Origin: a virus
Lineage: Duplodnaviria > Heunggongvirae > Uroviricota > Caudoviricetes
Strand: one strand, 5' to 3'
Length of the DNA stretch: 35,154 nt
IMG/VR virus record: IMGVR_UViG_2913152634_000005
Made by a program: the position numbers and the translations under genes. The notes beneath the pieces are model-generated. The model saw nothing but the letters and a program-made list of their open reading frames with translations. It did not search any database and was not told where the DNA came from. Positions 10,566-21,103 of this stretch are shown piece by piece (position 1 is the first letter of the stretch; each line of letters begins with the position of its first letter).

Positions 10566-11329
10566 TACCTAATTTTTAACCTCAACTGATTAAATTTCGG
10601 TCAAACATCCGTTAGTGAAATACAAGTTGCTATGTAAATACACACCTGCAACTTGTATTACCAACCAAGTTTAGCTCCCGATATTACTCATTTCCATTAT
10701 TTTTCCTTGGCTAGCGCTTCGTCGAACATTTTTACGTGTTATCTTCAAGGTAGATGCTCGCAGAAATGATAGTACCACCGATTCGGCGTTGACCATAAGC
10801 CAGCAGAACAAGATCCCCTTGGCCGGTTGTATTCGTTACACCACCAAATGCATAGAATGCCTTGTTATCAGTATCTTGCTTACTCGGCTACCCACAAGAT
10901 TGTGGGGATAGCATTTGAGCAACGTAGCCTATCGTCACAGAAGCCCCTACTACAAACATCATATTACTGGACGCTATACGCGCTCCTGACATTCAGATAG
11001 ACACAGCAACGCAAATCATTTGCAGCAGACCAGAGCTTTTACTTTCCACAATAACTGGCACAAATACGAATTTCCCGACCCTCAGTAGAGAGCACAAGCG
11101 CATCTTTTCCAATATTCTGTTTCCTATGAAAAATACAGAATGTCAGCTCGCGAAATTTACTAGTATTCAGATACTTTTCTAATCGAACCTCTCAGTTTAA
11201 TCGTCATCATTACCTTATAGCTCTGCATTTCGAGTTCCTACAGTAGAGTAAGTGTTCAGTAACCCAAGTTCAGGAGAAAGGAAACGATCATGCCATTTTC
11301 AGTCCCAAATAATGCTTTCCATTTCCTTT

Positions 11330-11480
11330 CTTTTCAGGTGGTGTTTTAAATAAAAACATAAAGTTACGGCGAAGAAGAACGGAAACGCCTTAAACCGGAA
11401 AATTTCCATAAATAGAGAAAAACTGCGCGCCTTCCGCCCCGTAACGCTCCGGATCACCGGAAAGGACCCGCTCAAAAAAA
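11330..11480. other. cos-like DNA packaging site of the integrated element (cosB/cosQ conserved, cosN divergent)
   Basis: About 150 bp with roughly 85-90% identity to the prophage cos region at 27122-27270; cosN position reads GGGCGGAAGGCG versus GGGCGGCGACCT. Confidence 0.7.
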
Positions 11481-11513
11481 GCGGCCACTGACGTGATTGT
11501 TTATGTTCCATGA

Positions 11514-11545
11514 GCGACAAAACCGCCCGGAGGCGGTTTCACATA
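11514..11545 (-). terminator. rho-independent terminator after the gpI-like gene
   Basis: minus-strand CCGCC-tccg-GGCGG stem followed by TTTTG. Confidence 0.5.
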
Positions 11546-11557
11546 AAACATTCTGCA

Positions 11558-12205
11558 TCAGCGACCAATCACCACGATTTCACCACCATCACCTTCATCA
11601 GCTGTGCTGATCTCCTGAGATACCACACGTGACCCCACGCGCATTTCACCGTACAGAACAGGCAGGACATTGCCCTGGGCAACCATGTTATCCAGTGACG
11701 AGAAATACGTGTTCTGCTTACCGTTATCCGTTGTCTGTGTACGGGGAGTTCTGGCTTTCGGTGCCAGCATCTGAGCCACACCGCCAAGGATCATACTGGC
11801 CCCCGCACTATACATTCCTGTAATTGCTGCCGCTCCTAGCCAACCAGCGGGGTTCCACCACGCCACCGCAATCAGCGCCGCCCCCAGCACGGTCTGAAAC
11901 ACACCGCCACTTTTAGCGCCAGCAAGACGCGGTACGATGTGGATCACAGCACCATTCGCCAGCGGCTCATTAAGACGGGCTGATAATTCATTTTCGCCTG
12001 CATCCCGCCCGGCAATCCGTACCTGATACCAACCGTCGCTCAGTTTCTGACGAAACGACGGTAGCTGTGTGGACAGAGCTCGGATGGCTTCAGCCCCCGT
12101 TTTTACACGAAGGTCGATGCGGCGGCCGAATCGTTGCAAATCCCCGTAAAGGCAGATTCGTGCCATGCCCGATGACGCCAGAGGGAGTGTGTGCGTAGTT
12201 GCCAT
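11558..12205 (-). CDS. I: lambda gpI-like tail assembly protein
   Basis: 215 aa; MATTHTLPLASSGMARICLYGDLQRFGRRIDLRVKTG...NTYFSSLDNMVAQGNVLPVLYGEMRVGSRVVSQEISTADEGDGG closely matches lambda gpI as remembered. Confidence 0.8.
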   Translation of the reverse strand: MATTHTLPLASSGMARICLYGDLQRFGRRIDLRVKTGAEAIRALSTQLPSFRQKLSDGWYQVRIAGRDAGENELSARLNEPLANGAVIHIVPRLAGAKSGGVFQTVLGAALIAVAWWNPAGWLGAAAITGMYSAGASMILGGVAQMLAPKARTPRTQTTDNGKQNTYFSSLDNMVAQGNVLPVLYGEMRVGSRVVSQEISTADEGDGGEIVVIGR

Positions 12206-12245
12206 TTGTCGGTATACCTCTCTCGTTTGCTCTGTTGTTCAGAAA

Positions 12246-12629
12246 TTAGCAGATCAACTTATAGCGTCCCTTCCGAGCATTGCGGCGTACACGTTCAATC
12301 TTGAGGCATAGCGCCGCATCTGGCTTTTTTGGGACTGGTACACGGCAATATTCAGAAGCGCGAGGAATATTATTTATCCAGTCAATCACTTCGCTTAAAT
12401 ACCAGGCCTTACGCCCTTCCGTAACCTGCACACGCTCCGGGAACTCTCCACGGGCCTCAAGGTTTAGCAGTGTACGACGACTCAGGGTTGTAAGTTCCAT
12501 CACCTGATTCATATCAACAAGACGCTCGCTTAAACGCATTTTGTCAGCGATAGCTTTTAATTCCTCTACAGCTGGATTTGGGTACATAATTTCGGCAATT
12601 GGCTTAAGGTCATTGTAATGATTCTGCAT
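12246..12629 (-). CDS. AlpA/MerR-like winged-HTH DNA-binding protein (function uncertain; candidate packaging-specificity factor)
   Basis: 127 aa; HTH segment MELTTLSRRTLLNLEARGEFPERVQVTEGRKAWYLSEVIDWI; strong RBS aaggggga. Confidence 0.55.
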   Translation of the reverse strand: MQNHYNDLKPIAEIMYPNPAVEELKAIADKMRLSERLVDMNQVMELTTLSRRTLLNLEARGEFPERVQVTEGRKAWYLSEVIDWINNIPRASEYCRVPVPKKPDAALCLKIERVRRNARKGRYKLIC

Positions 12630-12640
12630 TGTATCCCCCT

Positions 12641-12982
12641 TTACACACGAGCCAGCGGCTGAACAGAAATACCTGAGCCAACAAACGCTGCAACCTTTAC
12701 TGACAGTTCTTTTACAGACTCAGGCCAGTTCAGAGCATCAACATTTAAGACACCTGTCTTATAGACCTGAGCCTGTGTTTTTTTCGCGGTGTCGATTTGT
12801 ACAGCGGATACATAAACCGCTTTACCTACGCTCGTACCATCCCATACCACCAGTGCACCTGTTGCATCTTCCTGCATCAGTGGCGTAAATGCAGGAATTA
12901 CCCCTTTATTAGCTGAAAATATCCCCAGCGTAGTAACCAGTGCTTCAGTGCCAGCCATGAGTTCAGTGTAATGAGTAGCCAT
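12641..12982 (-). CDS. head decoration protein, distant lambda D homologue
   Basis: 113 aa; TPLM...LVVWDGTS.GKAV...Y.KTG...WPE...AF.GSGIS pattern parallels lambda gpD; translationally coupled to the capsid gene. Confidence 0.6.
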   Translation of the reverse strand: MATHYTELMAGTEALVTTLGIFSANKGVIPAFTPLMQEDATGALVVWDGTSVGKAVYVSAVQIDTAKKTQAQVYKTGVLNVDALNWPESVKELSVKVAAFVGSGISVQPLARV

Positions 12983-12991
12983 TGCTCCCCC

Positions 12992-14038
12992 TTAGCCAAT
13001 GCGAACGGTAACAAAACGATTGATGCGGGCCGGTATTGGCTGTGGTGCTGAATGTGTCTGCACATATTCAATAGCCGGATCACCAGGCACAATATAGTTT
13101 TTCGGTGCAAGTTCGGCTTTAGTCAGCCCCATTCGGATTAGCTCCGGATCCTGAATACCGCCATAGGCGACAATCCCCTGAAGAGCCGTATTGCCAAGCA
13201 CCATCAAATCAGGATCAAGGAAATGTTTTTCAGTTCCGTCCTCGTCGGTATAACGCCCGCTGTAAACAACAATCGCAACATCGCCCATATACCCTTTAAA
13301 ACTCACCGAATCACCAAGGTCTTTAAGGGCCGTTTCCAGTTCGGAATTAGAACCACGACGGGTATCCAGAGCCTCTTTTATCGCTCTGAATGAACGGTAT
13401 TTCTTCCATACATTACCGCCCATAATGATGATATTAGTGACGCCCTCACTAAATTCTGCGTAGTTCTCAATATCATCATTTGGATCAAAAGTTTCTTTAT
13501 CCTTACCTGACCACTCAGCACCGCCAGACTGAGTGATGATATTTTGTGGTTTAATATTCCAGTCCAGCTCATAACGTTCAATACCATCGCCCTCAATGAT
13601 ATTTTTCCCCGTTGTGATTGCCTGAACGGCAAGCCATTCAATACGTGCACGAATAGCTTTAGCTTGATTTACAATCGCCTGTTTAACTTTAATATTACGC
13701 GCCCCAAAAGCATTGTATTGCTCAGGTGATACACCAGCAGGGCGCACAGCTAACTTATTTGGATCAATGCTGCTTTTCGGCTTCATATAGCCTGGACGAA
13801 TTGTTTTTGATTCGTACCCTTCGTCACGTGAAACTTTACTACCCACCATAGGAGAACAAAACGCTGCAATTGGGATATTTGGATCGTCGATTGTATCAAG
13901 AATAATATCGCGCGATTCAAACATTACCGAGCGAGTAAAAAACAAACGGGTAAACAACGCATTTAGTTGTTTTTGTACATCTACAGCATTAACCACCTGT
14001 ACAAGCTGGGTAGGCGAATATAAATCAACCATACGCAT
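12992..14038 (-). CDS. major capsid protein, lambda E-like, encoded by the integrated element
   Basis: Conserved blocks ITQSGGAEWSGKDKETFDPNDDIE, DTRRGSNSELETALKDLG, YMGDVAIVVYSG, LGNT shared with lambda gpE at roughly half identity; start at ATG 14036-38 or 14030-32. Confidence 0.82.
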   Translation of the reverse strand: MRMVDLYSPTQLVQVVNAVDVQKQLNALFTRLFFTRSVMFESRDIILDTIDDPNIPIAAFCSPMVGSKVSRDEGYESKTIRPGYMKPKSSIDPNKLAVRPAGVSPEQYNAFGARNIKVKQAIVNQAKAIRARIEWLAVQAITTGKNIIEGDGIERYELDWNIKPQNIITQSGGAEWSGKDKETFDPNDDIENYAEFSEGVTNIIIMGGNVWKKYRSFRAIKEALDTRRGSNSELETALKDLGDSVSFKGYMGDVAIVVYSGRYTDEDGTEKHFLDPDLMVLGNTALQGIVAYGGIQDPELIRMGLTKAELAPKNYIVPGDPAIEYVQTHSAPQPIPARINRFVTVRIG

Positions 14039-14249
14039 CCTCTTTGCATTCATTAAAAATAATTGTGGATATATGCTATCACCGATATTTGTCATGCGAA
14101 TACATGCAACCGAGTGCAATGTTGTATAAAGTTTTGGGATGACAACTTCAGCGCGGATAATTAGTGTTAATATCTTCACTCCCTTTGGTCGGGATTTATG
14201 TAGCATGCCGGAAAATTTATTTTTTTCCGGCCTTTTTTATTGGCAATAT

Positions 14250-14699
14250 TTAAAACGGAATATCATCTCCCCATTGCTCATTATCTCCCACTGGTGGATG
14301 GCTTCCTTGCTGATCTGCCTGTTGTTTTGCTCTGTTCAGTGCGTCAGTAGCCTGCCCCTGTTGGCCTTTTTTGCCGCCCGGTCGCACCGTTCGCGCACTG
14401 ATTACGCTGTCTGCGATAACCTGCCAGCCCTGCCGCGTTTCACCGTTCTGTCCAGTCCACTGACTCACCTGCATGTTACCCGCCACGCTCAGGAGTTCGC
14501 CTTTGTGATGCTTTGCCAGCGCGTCGGCTTGTCTGCCAAACGCCAGAACAGATAACCACATCGTCGCCTGACCGTCATCCGATTGGCTGCAGGGCAGTGA
14601 TACCGCCATACGCGCCAGCGTCATGGGGGTGCCCTTGCTGGTCTGTTTTGTCTGCGGGGCGTCCACCAGCCGCCCGTAAGCTGCTATTTGCGCCGTCAT
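14250..14699 (-). CDS. ssb: single-stranded DNA-binding protein
   Basis: 149 aa; OB-fold SSB pattern, Gly/Gln-rich linker and C-terminal acidic tail DDIPF. Confidence 0.85.
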   Translation of the reverse strand: MTAQIAAYGRLVDAPQTKQTSKGTPMTLARMAVSLPCSQSDDGQATMWLSVLAFGRQADALAKHHKGELLSVAGNMQVSQWTGQNGETRQGWQVIADSVISARTVRPGGKKGQQGQATDALNRAKQQADQQGSHPPVGDNEQWGDDIPF

Positions 14700-14953
14700 G
14701 CTGCCTGCTCTCCGGACTTAATATTGATGGTTGTCACTTCCTCCGCTTCGGCAATCTCCCGTTCGGTCAGCGTGGCAAAGTTTGCAGCCGCCGTTGTCAT
14801 GAATGCGCTTATCAGTTCGGGATGTGCTTTCGCGTATCCTTCCCCGGCGTTGCGGTCTATTGCCTTAATCGCCACCCTTAGCCAGTGTTCAGCCATATCA
14901 AGGGCGCGGTAATGTGGCTTTATATGTTTGTTCAGTTTTCCTGATGTGTGCAT
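14696..14953 (-). CDS. hypothetical protein, translationally coupled to ssb
   Basis: 85-aa ORF; stop overlaps the ssb start. Confidence 0.4.
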   Translation of the reverse strand: MHTSGKLNKHIKPHYRALDMAEHWLRVAIKAIDRNAGEGYAKAHPELISAFMTTAAANFATLTEREIAEAEEVTTINIKSGEQAA

Positions 14954-14989
14954 TTTTATTTTTACCCCCTCGTTTAAAAAGTTTTTTGT

Positions 14990-15240
14990 GCACCACCACC
15001 TTGTCTACCTTGTCTACCTGATTAGTTATCAGGCCAGTAATGGCGCGGGTTTCAGGGAGGTAGACAGCCCCAAATAGCTGTCTACCTCATCTCTACCCGT
15101 CTCCTTACCTGTCTACAAAAATGGGTAGATAAGGTAGATAACAGGTAGACAGTGAAAAATAGTTATCTACCTGCATTAATACATTGAAATAAAAGTATTT
15201 TCTTTCAGTCAGGTAGACAAGGTAGATAACCATTGCCATT
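14990..15240. repeat. iteron array, putative replication origin of the element
   Basis: At least ten copies of GGTAGACA/GGTAGATA and their complements TGTCTACC in both orientations, directly downstream of the helicase gene. Confidence 0.7.
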
Positions 15241-15242
15241 TT

Positions 15243-16334
15243 TTATAAAAACGCATCGCAATCATCAGTAGTCGTTGCGTTGGTCTGCGTGACTCCCTTA
15301 ACTTTTCGCGTAATATATTCATATCCGTAAACTTTCGCCGCTGACCTCATAGCCTTTCCGAACTCATTCACGCTCAAACATTTCCCCTTTCCTGTGTATG
15401 CCATGAAGGCCATATAGACACGGTAAAGGCTGTTTCTGGTCGTGTACTTCACGGAGTCACCACCACCGCCCATCATTAGCCCACGAGCTTCCTCCAGAAA
15501 CTCAAGCGCCGCGCAAAGCTCAACAACTGGATCCGTTTGCTGCTTTATTGCCAGAGCTTCATCACCGTCACGCTGTTCCAGTAGTAAAGCCCTTGCCTTT
15601 TCAGGGTCAGCAAAGTTAGCCAGCAAGCGGCGGATAATTACGGGGATTTCTGCCGCTATCTTTTCCGGTAATTCCTTGTCTTTTTCGTCCTCCCTTACAA
15701 TGTTGTCGAACCGGAAAATCACCCGACGGCGTGACACACCTCCGGCCCGTTCGGTAAAGATCATCGGGTCGTTATTGGTTGCCAGTACCACCGCCCTTAT
15801 TATCGTCGTGAATCGCTTCTCATATTTCGGATTGATTTCAACGGGATCGCCTCCCGTGATTTTCTTGATGCCCGTGCCTTCCCCCGTATATTTCGGCTGA
15901 TCGGCAAGGACGATAAGACGACTCCCGACAACCTGCGCGCGCCCTCCTGCATCATCGAGTGATGTCATCTCTGCGCTTACGGTGTTCTGTTTGCCTGCAA
16001 GCAGGGTGGCAATATGGGTAAATGTACTCTTACCGCTTCCCCCGTCTCCGGTGGCCTCAATGAACATCTGCCAGTCGTAGCGGTTCGCCATAATCATGTA
16101 TAACGCGGCACATATACGCATCATCTTGCGCGGGTCTTTTCCTGCAGCATGTTCAAGCCATTTATGGAAATTTGGCGCATTATCGCGGATGTTTTCCCCT
16201 GCTACTGGTGGCGTGTACTCAATACCATTGTGCGTGGTGCTCCAGTGCTCCGGCGAGTGCGGAGAAAATTCCCCCGTTTTCAGATTAAGCACACCATTAG
16301 TGAACGGTAGCAAATCACCGGACGGCTCCCCCAT
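15243..16334 (-). CDS. replicative helicase domain protein (P4-alpha/D5-type, SF3)
   Basis: 363 aa; Walker A GDGGSGKST, Walker B LIVLADQP; FTNGVLNLKTGEF motif typical of the D5_N/primase linker. Confidence 0.8.
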   Translation of the reverse strand: MGEPSGDLLPFTNGVLNLKTGEFSPHSPEHWSTTHNGIEYTPPVAGENIRDNAPNFHKWLEHAAGKDPRKMMRICAALYMIMANRYDWQMFIEATGDGGSGKSTFTHIATLLAGKQNTVSAEMTSLDDAGGRAQVVGSRLIVLADQPKYTGEGTGIKKITGGDPVEINPKYEKRFTTIIRAVVLATNNDPMIFTERAGGVSRRRVIFRFDNIVREDEKDKELPEKIAAEIPVIIRRLLANFADPEKARALLLEQRDGDEALAIKQQTDPVVELCAALEFLEEARGLMMGGGGDSVKYTTRNSLYRVYMAFMAYTGKGKCLSVNEFGKAMRSAAKVYGYEYITRKVKGVTQTNATTTDDCDAFL

Positions 16335-16993
16335 GGGGCGGCAATAACTTTTAACGCTTCCACGGCGTTATTGATTACGCGTTTGCTGAACGTGGCCCTG
16401 TGCTCTGAATAGATCGCCACCATTTCGCGGCTCAGCTCCATTGTGCTGACCGGACACCATACCCCGCCGCGCCATACGTGGACGATTTCACTTTCTGCAT
16501 GAACACAAACACCATCAAAGCGATCGGCAAGTAGTTGTGCCCGCTCACTGTCTGCCATCTGTGAAAGTTGCGCCTTTTGCTTCGTCGGAAGATTAAGCAC
16601 CAGGCTTTCCCCACGCTCGCATTCCTCTTTGAGTCGCGGCAACTGGTCGGATAAATCCACAGGGCTGGTGTCAGTAATCCCCGCGTATTCGTGTACGGTC
16701 TTCACTCCAGCCACAGCCAGTAACGTAACAATCTGCGTCATGCTGTGCTCTGTGATATGTCCTGCGCGGTAAACACGCACACACTGACGATCTTCATCAA
16801 TGATCCGGTAATCGGTGATGTTTTTCAGTTGCTCATCAGCCAGCACGACAGGCGGCACATCGTCGGCGGCAATATGTTTACCCGCCCATTCCTGCCACTC
16901 TTTCGCATGGCTCCACGCATCACTACCTGCAAAGATGATTACCTCTGTCAGTCTGTCGCGTGGCTGTTTTTTTAAGTTCGGTGCCAGTTTCAT
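16280..16993 (-). CDS. primase-like replication protein, N-terminal module (overlaps the helicase ORF by 55 nt in another frame)
   Basis: 237-aa ORF upstream of the helicase; the overlap suggests one primase-helicase gene split by a frameshift. Confidence 0.5.
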   Translation of the reverse strand: MKLAPNLKKQPRDRLTEVIIFAGSDAWSHAKEWQEWAGKHIAADDVPPVVLADEQLKNITDYRIIDEDRQCVRVYRAGHITEHSMTQIVTLLAVAGVKTVHEYAGITDTSPVDLSDQLPRLKEECERGESLVLNLPTKQKAQLSQMADSERAQLLADRFDGVCVHAESEIVHVWRGGVWCPVSTMELSREMVAIYSEHRATFSKRVINNAVEALKVIAAPWGSRPVICYRSLMVCLI

Positions 16994-17289
16994 TTTTTGC
17001 CCCTGAATGCGTTAATCATGCTTTTCATTTTCTGGATGTTTCCCCGCGCTTTTTCCCTGCTGGTGGGCTTACTGCGGGGTGCGGCATATACCAGGGAAAA
17101 ATCACGCCGGAACTGATAAACAGGCATCACGCAGTCATAGCTATACCCCTCACGGCGGTAAGTGATGCGCCGTTCTGCCACGCCTTTAATCGTTACCGTG
17201 CCGCCGTATTTATCGCGGTAAATATCGCCGTTCATAAATTCAGGCCGAGCGGGGCCGCTGGCAATAAAGCCAGAATTTTTCATTTCCAT
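16990..17289 (-). CDS. hypothetical protein
   Basis: 99-aa ORF, stop overlaps the primase start (ATGA). Confidence 0.4.
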   Translation of the reverse strand: MEMKNSGFIASGPARPEFMNGDIYRDKYGGTVTIKGVAERRITYRREGYSYDCVMPVYQFRRDFSLVYAAPRSKPTSREKARGNIQKMKSMINAFRGKK

Positions 17290-17306
17290 ATTATTTATTC
17301 TTCGAC

Positions 17307-17528
17307 TTAACTCGACTTATTTGATAGCAGGGCACTATTTATTGCGTCATTGAGTTTTTCTGCTGCTTCATCAATAAGTGACAACAGGCCATAAGCAATA
17401 TTTGCATCTTCATTGTCATTTATGCAATCAAGCCACATATTTAATATTGCTTTTGCTGAATTATTTAAAGTTAATGAACTCTCTGCACATGCTAACAATT
17501 TAAAAAAGACTTCTCGTTCTGTATTCAT
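17307..17528 (-). CDS. hypothetical protein
   Basis: 73-aa ORF in a tightly packed leftward operon. Confidence 0.35.
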   Translation of the reverse strand: MNTEREVFFKLLACAESSLTLNNSAKAILNMWLDCINDNEDANIAYGLLSLIDEAAEKLNDAINSALLSNKSS

Positions 17529-17720
17529 TTAATCCCCCACCAGCTTACTTTCTTCCTCAATCAGGAAACTAGCGACACTTCCCGAAAGGCGCGCCAGTAG
17601 GCTCGCCAGCGCGGATATATCAGCATCTGTAATTTTGTTCGGGTATACCTCAAGAAGGCGGCAAATAATCTCTGTTTGGTGCGCACGTTCAGCGGCTTCG
17701 TGTAATGTGATTTCCTGCAT
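17529..17720 (-). CDS. hypothetical protein
   Basis: 63-aa ORF abutting its neighbours. Confidence 0.35.
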   Translation of the reverse strand: MQEITLHEAAERAHQTEIICRLLEVYPNKITDADISALASLLARLSGSVASFLIEEESKLVGD

Positions 17721-17905
17721 TAATGCACCTCTTTTAATTCATACACTGCTGAAATAATGACTTGTGATAAGCCATATTCTGATGATTCGCTTCTCACCGC
17801 AGCAATAGCCGTCTGAACATTAACAGCCTTCACGTTCTGAGCGATACCAATTGTGTGGCCTCGTGGGTTAACAGCTCGGGCAAATACACGGAAGGTTTTA
17901 AGCAC
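17720..17905 (-). CDS. hypothetical protein
   Basis: 61-aa ORF abutting its neighbours. Confidence 0.35.
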   Translation of the reverse strand: MLKTFRVFARAVNPRGHTIGIAQNVKAVNVQTAIAAVRSESSEYGLSQVIISAVYELKEVH

Positions 17906-18161
17906 GGCGCACCTCCTGACGAATACGGGCAGCGAATACCATCACGCAGCCAGTTGGGGATTGCTGGCGGGCTTCCTGTTCGCTGATGGCCTCGATGGTA
18001 ATCACGCGCGGTTGTGCCGTACTCAAGGCGATAAAACGCCAGATGTATTTATTCAGGTTGTGCGAGTTCCGCCCTTGCGGGTGTGTGGTATGATTTCTCA
18101 TAGCTACCTCGATACTGTTGCTATCGTTGGTGGTTAAACGCCCTGTATGTGTTGCGAGCAC
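17898..18161 (-). CDS. hypothetical protein, first gene of the leftward operon
   Basis: 87-aa ORF starting next to the divergent promoter region. Confidence 0.35.
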   Translation of the reverse strand: MLATHTGRLTTNDSNSIEVAMRNHTTHPQGRNSHNLNKYIWRFIALSTAQPRVITIEAISEQEARQQSPTGCVMVFAARIRQEVRRA

Positions 18162-18196
18162 TGCAGGGCGTTGTTCCAGAGCAATAAAACATGATA

Positions 18197-18240
18197 AGGT
18201 GTGTACCTATCAAGAAGCATACTAAGCAATAGGTACATAC
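18197..18240. promoter_or_regulatory. inverted-repeat operator in a divergent promoter region
   Basis: TGTACCTAT (18202-18210) and ATAGGTACA (18229-18237) form a 9-bp inverted repeat immediately upstream of the RHH gene. Confidence 0.45.
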
Positions 18241-18435
18241 ATGTCAACTATCATTCAGCGCGATAAACAGCCGAAAGGTGCTGGTAAGGCACCGGCATTT
18301 CAGATCCGTATCAACCCGGAACTAAAAGAACAAATGGTTAGTGCGGCTGCAAAAGAAGGAATGAGTTTGGCTAATTGGCTTAAAGAACTAGCAAGAGCAG
18401 AACTACGCAAACAAGGTATTGAACCTAGAGGTTAA
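18241..18435 (+). CDS. ribbon-helix-helix DNA-binding protein (repressor or antitoxin-like)
   Basis: 64 aa; beta-strand FQIRINPEL followed by two helices (KEQMVSAAAKEG / MSLANWLKELARAEL), typical of CopG/Arc RHH proteins. Confidence 0.55.
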   Translation: MSTIIQRDKQPKGAGKAPAFQIRINPELKEQMVSAAAKEGMSLANWLKELARAELRKQGIEPRG

Positions 18436-18459
18436 GACTTTTAAAAGGATCTGTGAGAG

Positions 18460-19185
18460 ATGCAAAATCTAAAACGAATAAGTGAATATAATTTAACAGA
18501 CAATCCTATCCCACATTATTTCCCTCATGATAGTAGATTCCTGTCTCTACTTGGGAAATTTTCGTTCCGACTTGAAGATCTAATAGTATTTCACTCATTT
18601 GTTTATCATACATATAACATAAATCTTAAGGAGATACAAAAAATTGCAGATAACACTCCCCAATATAATCCAGACTTATTAGACGATGAAGAGCATGAAA
18701 TGGCCTTGATTTCTCAAGCCAGACATAGAGAGAGGGTTGGTTATTATGATGATCTTAATAGAAAAGCCTCATTTTTTGCCAATGACAGTGTCGTAATTAA
18801 TCTTTGGGCTATTATTGAACAGTTTAGTACCATGGCATACTCTTTGCTAGAAGCAATTATTAAAGAAATACCTGAAAATCAAGTTAAAGTTCCATATACA
18901 TGGGATAAATTAAAAAAGAAATACTTAAGTTATGGTATTGACCTCTCCCAACTTGATTCTTACGATGTCATTAACGAAACTAGGGTTTTAAACAACAAAA
19001 TCAAACACCTTTATATTGTCGATGAAAACCTTGCCTCTTTTCCTTTTTTCAAGGACAAAGAGAACAAGTCATTATTAGGAATGGAATATAGGCTTCAAGA
19101 TTATGTTATTGGAACTCATAAGTTCATCGGGCATCTTTTAGAGGATTGCTCCATAAAATTAGGAAATAAGGCAAACATGATTTAA
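18460..19185 (+). CDS. hypothetical protein, AT-rich cargo gene (candidate toxin or defence effector)
   Basis: 241-aa ORF 24 nt after the RHH gene; no family recognised; visibly AT-rich. Confidence 0.5.
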   Translation: MQNLKRISEYNLTDNPIPHYFPHDSRFLSLLGKFSFRLEDLIVFHSFVYHTYNINLKEIQKIADNTPQYNPDLLDDEEHEMALISQARHRERVGYYDDLNRKASFFANDSVVINLWAIIEQFSTMAYSLLEAIIKEIPENQVKVPYTWDKLKKKYLSYGIDLSQLDSYDVINETRVLNNKIKHLYIVDENLASFPFFKDKENKSLLGMEYRLQDYVIGTHKFIGHLLEDCSIKLGNKANMI

Positions 19186-19189
19186 ATTA

Positions 19190-19222
19190 ATTAGGTAGGT
19201 AATAAACCTACCTAATTGAAAT
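19190..19222. terminator. bidirectional terminator hairpin between convergent genes
   Basis: Perfect palindrome TTAGGTAGGT-aataaa-CCTACCTAA. Confidence 0.55.
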
Positions 19223-19225
19223 GAT

Positions 19226-19459
19226 TTACTTATTTAAGTACCATTCCCCACGAATCCACGCCTGCACCTCCGAAAGGCGATATGCTACGGCAGTGGCACC
19301 TATTTTAATTCGCTTTGGAAACTTTCCTTCTTTCTCTAACTTCCATCGAGTGCTATTAGCAAGAGTAGTTAACTCACGGCATTCTTTCTCACGGATCATT
19401 CGGTCAATGTTAGGAATGTATTCCAGACCCTTTTTATCAACAATTGCCATTTTTTTCAT
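19226..19459 (-). CDS. alpA: AlpA-family excisionase/transcriptional regulator
   Basis: 77 aa; HTH CRELTTLANSTRWKLEKEGKFPKRIKIG; immediately downstream of int. Confidence 0.7.
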   Translation of the reverse strand: MKKMAIVDKKGLEYIPNIDRMIREKECRELTTLANSTRWKLEKEGKFPKRIKIGATAVAYRLSEVQAWIRGEWYLNK

Positions 19460-19460
19460 G

Positions 19461-20573
19461 TTAACCAGCCTTTTGTTTGAGGATTGTCACTTTTGAATCA
19501 GCAGCTGCGATGCTATTGAGATATGTAGTCCAGAGTTCCAGAGCATCCAGTTTTTTAGCCATAAACTTACTCCGGTTGTAAACACCTGCCACGCCAGGTA
19601 GCGCATGGCCTAACAGTTGTTCTACTACATAAAATTCAACACCGAGATCACTTAGATGAGTAGATAGCGTTCTTCTAAGGTCGTGTAGTGACCATTGTTT
19701 TTCATGGCCCAAACGTTTACCGATTTTCCCCCCAATCTTGCTTACGCTTTCTCTAATTCGCAGACTTCCCAGCACATAACCAGTATGTTTTGTCTCTTCG
19801 TGAACATCCGTTACCCACTGTCGTAGAATTTCAGGTACTGGTCTGACGATTTCAACACCAGTTTTTGAGTGATCTTTTGGTACAGTCCAAACCCAACTTT
19901 CGAGATCCCATTCGCTCCATTCTGATAATCGGGCTTCACTCATTCGACATCCAAATACTGTACAAAGCACAAACATTTTTCGCGTGTATTCAGACATTAG
20001 TTTTAAATCAGGCTCGACAAAAATTGCCTTCCAGAGCTGGCCGAGTTCGGCTTCATCCAGAACCCGATCCCGCTTACCTGCAATCTGCCCCACATCACTC
20101 ATGCGCAAATCCTTTAAAGCATCACACGTCGCGTACTGGCGTACCCGACAAAAACGAAGAGCTAATTTAGTGTCAGAAAAAACATACGCCGCCATAACTG
20201 GTGCATTACTTTTAATTCGGTCAAAACAGTCCAGCCATTCATATAGGTGAGTGTCATTTACGGGCAAATGACCGATATAGGGAAAGATATGCTTTCGAAA
20301 TCTGCCAAGCGTTACAGCATGAGTTTTACGACGCACCTTACAGTAATTTTCATACCAGTAATTTAGTGCATCCTCCACTGTGACCGGCTTTAAGCGTTCT
20401 TCAGCCTGAATCTTAATCTGGATACGCGGATCACGTTTGTCAGCCAACCAAGCACGGCACTCGTCGCGCTTTTCCCTTGCCTGTTTGAGTGACATATCAG
20501 GATATTTACCCAACGTTAGCCAGACCGGAGCAGCCCGGCCACCTGCTAACCTGTAGAAGAAAACAAAGCTCAC
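19461..20573 (-). CDS. int: tyrosine integrase (P4-type), catalytic portion; N-terminal arm-binding segment lies in another frame at 20573-20695
   Basis: 370 aa with R...HDLRRT...LLGH...Y tyrosine-recombinase motifs; ORF 20570-20827 encodes the expected N-terminus MAGENKLSDKALKGYLGKPREKQITIADGKGLSIRVSTKGL and stops 1 nt out of frame. Confidence 0.8.
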   Translation of the reverse strand: MSFVFFYRLAGGRAAPVWLTLGKYPDMSLKQAREKRDECRAWLADKRDPRIQIKIQAEERLKPVTVEDALNYWYENYCKVRRKTHAVTLGRFRKHIFPYIGHLPVNDTHLYEWLDCFDRIKSNAPVMAAYVFSDTKLALRFCRVRQYATCDALKDLRMSDVGQIAGKRDRVLDEAELGQLWKAIFVEPDLKLMSEYTRKMFVLCTVFGCRMSEARLSEWSEWDLESWVWTVPKDHSKTGVEIVRPVPEILRQWVTDVHEETKHTGYVLGSLRIRESVSKIGGKIGKRLGHEKQWSLHDLRRTLSTHLSDLGVEFYVVEQLLGHALPGVAGVYNRSKFMAKKLDALELWTTYLNSIAAADSKVTILKQKAG

Positions 20574-20827
20574 AGCCCCTTGGTACTCACACGAATAGAA
20601 AGCCCCTTTCCATCAGCAATGGTGATCTGCTTTTCTCTGGGTTTCCCCAGATATCCTTTAAGTGCTTTGTCGCTCAGTTTGTTCTCGCCAGCCATTTTTA
20701 GCCCCAAAAAGCAATACAAGCTGCAATACAGAGATGATTGCAACACACAGATAACGAGGAAAATCCAGTGAAAGCGCCAGATAAACTTATTCTTTATTAT
20801 CAAAAGATTAAGTGTAAAAACCAGCAA

Positions 20828-21103
20828 CTACACGAAAGCCTCAGAAAGCCATGCTAAGTGCTTCGGCTTGACATATCCCGGCGTAAATTCAGAGGTGGAG
20901 CCGCCACGGGAGCGGATAACCTCACCGGAAACAATCGGCGAAACGTACAGCGCCATGTTTACCAGCCCCGGAATTTGTGAGAGATAGACTTTCTCCGTGG
21001 TGAAGGGATAGCTCTCACGGAAAAAGAGACGCAGAAACAGCGGATCAAACTTAAATTTCTGCTCATTTGCCGCCAGCAGCTGGGCGGTTGTGTACATCGA
21101 CAT
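20828..21103 (-). pseudogene. E: major capsid protein E, 5' fragment (codons 1-84 plus 9 element-derived codons)
   Basis: MSMYTTAQLLAANEQKFKFDPLFLRLFFRESYPFTTEKVYLSQIPGLVNMALYVSPIVSGEVIRSRGGSTSEFTPGYVKPKH matches lambda gpE 1-84, then LAWLSEAFV-stop. Confidence 0.88.

Follow-up and report, generated by a model that had tools for sequence, protein, structure and literature searches.

A pri-rep gene split by one missing base, and an adjoining iteron cluster, in a satellite inserted in a defective lambdoid prophage

Genes and repeats of the replication module

The virus DNA of 35,154 nucleotides (nt) recorded as IMGVR_UViG_2913152634_000005 (Caudoviricetes), hereafter the window, carries a satellite element whose replication module is composed of an initiator-helicase gene, pri-rep, on the minus strand and a cluster of iterons at its 3' end. 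As read from the window, pri-rep is present as two open reading frames (ORFs), one of 237 amino acids (aa) at 16280-16993 (-) and one of 363 aa at 15243-16334 (-), which lie in different frames and overlap by 55 nt (16280-16334). The 363-aa ORF contains the Walker A sequence GDGGSGKST at 16023-16049 (-), and FTNGVLNLKTGEF corresponds to its residues 11-23 (16266-16304). The overlap and both motifs were found where the initial annotation had placed them.

The iterons are located in the intergenic region at 14954-15242, which shows 12 copies of GGTAGAYA at 15002-15228, six on each strand. The first copy is found 15 nt past the pri-rep stop codon, in agreement with the earlier claim of an array directly downstream of the helicase ORF, and the cluster stops 48 nt ahead of the next start codon. 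Exact GGTAGAYA words number 10 in the window, all of them within 15002-15228, with 1.1 expected, and a count of at least 10 was reached in none of 100 shuffles; two copies with one mismatch, at 15090 and 15110, raise the total to 12. The iterons form several inverted pairs. An AT-rich segment at 15172-15211, presumed to be the melting site, has oppositely oriented iterons on its flanks and is associated with inverted repeat I1, and the GC content falls to 25% in 15150-15209. Both the ORF overlap and the iteron cluster are far beyond chance.

Pfam analysis of the intact protein of 583 aa encoded by relatives shows a D5_N domain at residues 152-282 (16149-16540, -), which covers profile positions 1-142 of 145 with an E value of 6e-16. 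In the window this domain is cut at residue 220/221: the 363-aa ORF keeps only its last third (residues 7-62, profile positions 94-142 of 145), together with matches to DUF5906, the superfamily 3 (SF3) ATPase, and to Pox_D5, while the 237-aa ORF has no Pfam match. Since D5_N is complete on the intact protein across the site, the break falls within a domain. The SF3 ATPase core (DUF5906) occupies residues 315-416 (15747-16052, -) and includes the Walker A sequence, and residues 225-441 match PriRep5 of SaPI5 (PDB: 7OLA) with an E value of 7e-15. At the C-terminus, residues 487-578 (15261-15536, -), for which a Pox_D5 match was also obtained, match the origin-binding domain of the P4 alpha protein (PDB: 1KA8) with an E value of 3e-7, and are the putative iteron reader. 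Residues 137-578 are 42% identical to residues 321-762 of P4 alpha. The intact protein shares with P4 alpha-type proteins D5_N, an SF3 ATPase bearing Walker A and a C-terminal origin-binding domain.

The N-terminal domain of about 135 aa (16589-16993, -) stands where P4-type relatives have a Zn-ribbon and Toprim primase. P4 alpha and its relatives of about 800 aa show Zn_Ribbon_Prim and Toprim_3, with EGYATA and AADND motifs, before D5_N. A Zn-ribbon/Toprim module (EGYATA, DxD motifs) was not found in the 583-aa protein; residues 1-150 gave no Pfam or NCBIfam match, the invariant residues of the 583-aa family include no E-G or DxD motif, and hhalign of the domain with the Toprim region of the relatives gave a probability of 0.3%. 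The AF2 model of the domain is confident, with a pLDDT of 83.7, and Foldseek returned no matches with it. Only 86 representatives of this N-terminal domain were counted in a set of 1.84 billion proteins, which makes its family a small one, and the domain is fused to four replication ATPase types: D5_N-SF3, DUF927, AAA_25 and VapE-like (fusions were noted in proteins P0142, P0143, P0144, P0146, P0148 and P0169).

The 237-aa ORF joins this domain, which lacks a family match, to the first two-thirds of D5_N and ends in 17 residues read out of frame, and the label "primase-like" that it had received is not established by its sequence. The name "DNA primase family protein" derives from TIGR01613, which corresponds to the helicase part, so that the primase name in this protein family rests on the helicase, and no primase module was recognised. 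One could tentatively see in the N-terminal domain a non-primase adaptor that replaces Zn-ribbon/Toprim and defines a class of primase-less satellite initiators recruiting a host factor such as DnaG, an idea that we consider rather doubtful.

The missing base in pri-rep and its cause

The reconstructed pri-rep gene (15243-16993, -) has 1751 nt in the window and 1752 nt in relatives. The difference is located in a homopolymer at 16335-16338 (-), directly 5' of the ATG at 16334, where alignments to relatives L001 and L009 show C5 in the relatives (GCCGCCCCCATGGGGG) and C4 in the window (GCCGCCCCATGGGGG; G4 on the plus strand). By this 1-nt deletion the reading frame is not intact: the 237-aa ORF contains 220 native residues followed by the 17 out-of-frame residues WGSRPVICYRSLMVCLI, and the 363-aa ORF corresponds to native residues 221-583. 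The nearest genome, 2015C-4136CT1, shows one gene of 1752 nt encoding the 583-aa protein WP_001356811.1, annotated as "DNA primase family protein", which is a single coding sequence (CDS) in both nearest complete E. coli genomes (NZ_CP027550.1 and NZ_CP148363.1). Judged by these alignments, the two ORFs are one gene interrupted by a 1-nt contraction of the C5 run. The initial annotation had suggested one polypeptide cut by a frameshift, and this is borne out by the single 583-aa CDS of the relatives and the one base fewer in the window.

The window is E. coli DNA, and its module matches 1310 of 5426 complete genomes of this species. An 81-nt probe across the frameshift site was matched by 445 complete E. 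coli genomes, none of which contains the C4 allele as an exact match, and all 30 of the top matches listed have one extra base in relation to the window. Exact look-up of the 237-aa and 363-aa ORFs in a set of 15 billion proteins found neither of them; the intact 583-aa protein was found there on 105 contigs, and its cluster has 475 members, mostly of 583 aa. The best 120 protein homologues are all of 581-584 aa with 100% coverage. Furthermore, one locus was taken from each of 80 other species (41-78% identity), and in all 80 of them residues 190-260 are matched by a single one-frame tblastn segment. Among these homologues none has two separate genes, which would have spoken for a genuine pair. 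Alignment to P4 alpha, which had been proposed as a means of locating the shift, runs contiguously over the site. One genome, NZ_AP022177.1 (WP7-S17-ESBL-04), shows a pri-rep gene apparently interrupted by IS1A: the match extends over an additional 777 nt and includes an annotated IS1A transposase.

The tyrosine integrase gene at 19461-20695 (-) is also split, into ORFs of 370 and 85 aa, by a 1-nt contraction of a G/C 5-mer at 20576-20579. Across the 35 kb, only two indels are private to the window (16335-16338 and 20576-20579), and both are 1-nt contractions of G/C 5-mers. The lesion of pri-rep is private to the window sequence, with which both mutation and homopolymer miscall agree.

For a miscall, that is, a base lost from a G/C homopolymer in sequencing or assembly while pri-rep and the integrase gene are intact in the cell, the balance appears even. 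Each of the two private indels breaks an otherwise conserved gene, and the satellite shows zero substitutions in relation to 2015C-4136CT1. Leftover deletions in G/C homopolymers are typical of long-read assemblies, and the window spans copies of the insertion sequence IS3, which suggests an assembly of this type. Against a miscall, 33 other G/C runs of at least five bases are untouched, as are about 120 A/T runs of at least five, 7- and 8-mers included. In addition, only 7 of the 35 such G/C runs belong to int and pri-rep taken together, yet both lesions are found there, and the calculated chance of this under random error is about 0.035.

A true slippage mutation is a serious possibility that falls a little short of even; the satellite would then be decaying or immobilised, dead in replication and integration, and the capsid gene in which it lies would be permanently interrupted. 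The host prophage is already defective, as its tail tube gene contains IS3 and its replication gene P is truncated. Independent lesions of pri-rep occur elsewhere, as in the apparent IS1 insertion of WP7-S17-ESBL-04 and in cluster members truncated to 293 and 499 aa, and the gene for the single-stranded DNA-binding protein (SSB) is a pseudogene in related strains. The counts of 2 indels and 13 single-nucleotide polymorphisms are compatible with neutral decay. However, the same data suit a miscall, and no independent second genome with the C4 allele was found. It is less likely that the paired frameshifts of int and pri-rep are both real and selected, locking the satellite in the capsid gene of its helper and permanently disabling the prophage.

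The consequences differ accordingly. If the deletion is true, the satellite is unable to replicate autonomously, and if the integrase lesion is also true, it is unable to excise; if the base was lost by a homopolymer miscall, the pri-rep gene is intact. The homopolymers at 16335-16338 and 20576-20579 therefore bear on whether the satellite can be called defective, and in annotation the two ORFs should be joined into one frameshifted pri-rep gene, the integrase likewise.

Mutation, sequencing error and programmed shift had been offered together as causes of the split; the first two remain, and the third falls because the homopolymer is specific to a lineage and no relative shifts. A programmed or phase-variable shift, in which ribosomal -1 slippage on G5 or a reversible change of run length regulates the full-length protein, is very improbable. 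The frameshift site does have a C run on one side and a G run on the other, and a -1 slip on the GGGGG just after it would give the 583-aa protein with M221W as the sole difference. Nevertheless, none of the relatives (120 best homologues and 80 loci) requires a shift, the runs are not conserved (GAACCAATGGGC in CFT073 and CCGGTAATGGGT in vB_KppS-Ant at the site), and an X XXY YYZ heptamer is lacking. Phase variation is, moreover, inefficient on runs as short as 4-5 bases. The programmed frameshift was rejected on the lack of conservation of both shift and slippery site in homologues.

Primase-null and helicase-null mutants of P4 alpha reportedly complement in trans (Ziegelin et al. 1995). In some phage-inducible chromosomal islands (PICIs), pri and rep are separate genes (PMC6092414). 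That there are two genuine genes here, one for a primase-like N-terminal product and another for a helicase-initiator, which cooperate in trans, is hardly credible and was rejected on the homologue survey and the bisected D5_N, as the break lies inside this domain and not between domains, the 237-aa ORF terminates in its out-of-frame residues, no Shine-Dalgarno sequence is visible upstream of the ATG at 16334, no homologue is split at the site, and no standalone conserved proteins of the N-terminal domain were seen except fragments at contig ends.

Iteron cluster, origin and proposed replication

The intact pri-rep protein is orthologous to that of EcCICFT073, with 80% identity over 583/584 aa, and the gene order of the two elements is identical. 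In the window the order is int, a gene for an AlpA-like helix-turn-helix protein, an Icd-like gene, small ORFs, DUF4222, pri-rep, the intergenic region of about 289 nt, an ORF of 85 aa (258 nt), SSB, a lambda-E-like capsid gene and a decoration gene. The unidirectional synteny of int, alpA, pri, ori and late-gene homologues that characterizes PICIs is shown by the two near-identical genomes and CFT073. The origin region of the window aligns with the tested ori of EcCICFT073: the GTCTACC/GGTAGAC cores are conserved at aligned positions around the AT-rich stretch, and the spacers have diverged. A plasmid with rep and ori of EcCICFT073 replicates, and requires both (Fillol-Salom et al. 2018, PMC6092414). 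The earlier reading of the repeats as an iteron origin is strengthened by this alignment with an experimentally tested region. The two elements differ in that pri-rep of the window carries a frameshift, identity drops to about 45% over the N-terminal 135 aa, and the window satellite occupies a prophage capsid gene instead of a chromosomal site.

The region is very probably the replication module of an EcCICFT073-like PICI of Gram-negative bacteria, with one 583-aa initiator-helicase, an iteron origin at the 3' end of its gene and a lesion private to the window. Three points weigh against this assignment. Origin function and iteron binding would be carried over from an orthologue with 80% identity and not from the window element; true mutation and miscall both fit the sequence; and since neither the ATPase nor the origin-binding domain is lost from the 363-aa ORF, some residual activity is formally possible.

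The repeats could also be an operator for the operon of the 85-aa ORF and SSB, or serve as an auxiliary site in the manner of P4 crr, and the origin would then lie elsewhere, but this is improbable. In P4, the iterons immediately 3' of alpha constitute crr, with ori at a distance of 4.4 kb, and the closeness of the window cluster to the next start codon (48 nt) would suit an operator. Against both, the window contains no second GGTAGAYA cluster, and the aligned region of EcCICFT073 was the one tested as ori. In addition, a scan of 14600-17400 for promoters and terminators gave neither a sigma-70-like promoter nor anything else on the coding strand, with counts at shuffle level.

The arrangement of gene and cluster recurs among relatives. 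In 37 of 75 relatives, the 450 nt that follow the gene contain a 7-mer in at least five copies, in contrast with 2-3 copies (rarely 4-5) inside the gene. The classes of repeated words are GGTAGA(C/T/G)A, GGTGAACA, GGTATAC, GGACAGT and CAGTGAC. As checked on the P4 genome, GGTGAACA is the P4 type 1 repeat; it is present too in vB_KppS-Ant, which is similar to capsid-forming PICIs (cfPICIs). Relatives in other Enterobacterales and in Aeromonas (L012-L090) differ from the window in their iteron words, which are GGTGAACA, GGTATAC, GGACAGT, CAGTGAC and CCCTACC.

The 16 loci with at least five GGTAGA words have a median C-terminal identity to the window protein of 51% (36-82) and a median ATPase-core identity of 70%. 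These medians are 35% (32-38) and 58% in the eight loci of the GTGAAC class, and 32% (26-46) and 67% in the 39 other loci. Two Xenorhabdus loci illustrate the difference: L018 shows a core identity of 70%, a C-terminal identity of 51% and 12 GGTAGA words, whereas L033 shows 67%, 30% and zero words, respectively. Among these loci, iteron type goes with the identity of the C-terminus and not with that of the ATPase core, and because of this covariation the comparison supports the C-terminal domain as the probable iteron reader. In a large Xenorhabdus/Photorhabdus group with proteins of about 800 aa, there is no obvious array within 450 nt of the gene; by analogy with P4, the origin of this group may be elsewhere.

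PriRep5 of SaPI5 is a hexameric, self-loading SF3 helicase whose C-terminal winged helix reads iterons that flank an AT-rich centre (Qiao et al. 2022, PMC9371898). By analogy with it, the window module in its normal state would encode one self-loading initiator-helicase of 583 aa, with the N-terminal ~135 aa, a D5_N collar, the SF3 ATPase and an origin-binding domain of P4 alpha type. The C-terminal domain would bind the GGTAGAYA iterons, the AT-rich segment would melt, and the hexameric SF3 ring would load and then unwind the DNA; binding, melting and loading are inferred from the SaPI5 protein. Priming would probably be carried out by host DnaG, because the protein is without a recognisable primase module.

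Satellite elements of similar organization and prophage setting

The module belongs to a known kind of replicon: its orthologue was tested, its configuration inside a helper prophage is published, and RefSeq already lists the intact protein (WP_001356811.1). With a length of about 11.4 kb (approximately 9453-20857), the satellite is located within the major capsid gene, similar to lambda E, of a defective lambdoid prophage. This gene is left in two pieces, at 8664-9452 and 20858-21103, which lie on the minus strand and are co-oriented with the satellite genes. Downstream of the origin region, the replication zone continues with the 85-aa ORF (phrog_1231) and SSB (14250-14953, -), followed by the capsid gene of the satellite itself (12992-14032) and its decoration gene (12641-12982).

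PICIs embedded in their helper have been described, with "11capE" as an example (Mageeney et al. 2023, PMC10111431). Like the window satellite, 11capE is an 11-kb PICI that has integrated in the major capsid gene of a lambdoid prophage, in the orientation of that gene, and that brings along an ori and a primase-family gene. The likeness is one of configuration, and the window differs by the 1-nt deletions in int and pri-rep.

In comparison with P4, the window protein shares the 42% identity over D5_N, the SF3 ATPase and the origin-binding domain, with the C-terminus matching 1KA8, and both elements show a cluster of 8-bp iterons directly 3' of the gene. However, P4 alpha has a primase module of Zn-ribbon and Toprim that was not recognised in the window protein, the iteron is GGTAGAYA in the window and TGTTCACC in P4, and the window shows a single cluster while P4 has separate ori and crr. 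PriRep5 of SaPI5 is related in sequence over the SF3 ATPase and the N-tier, and has the same layout, with iterons just 3' of the gene, in opposite orientations, on both sides of an AT-rich centre. It differs in its Gram-positive origin, in an N-terminal region unrelated to that of the window protein and in iterons of 5-6 bp.

The satellite also contains accessory genes at 9804-10565 and 18241-19185. In colinear genomes they are annotated as encoding a member of an abortive-infection family and, together, a HicB-like antitoxin and a hypothetical protein of 241 aa; it is possible that these genes are defence cargo. An Rfam scan of the whole window found nothing in the replication module and only isrC, a small RNA, at 6464-6586 (135 bits), which adjoins the IS3 copy at 5405-6618. 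At the prophage end (1-2034), the annotation of a colinear genome shows the type III effector genes nleC and nleB2.
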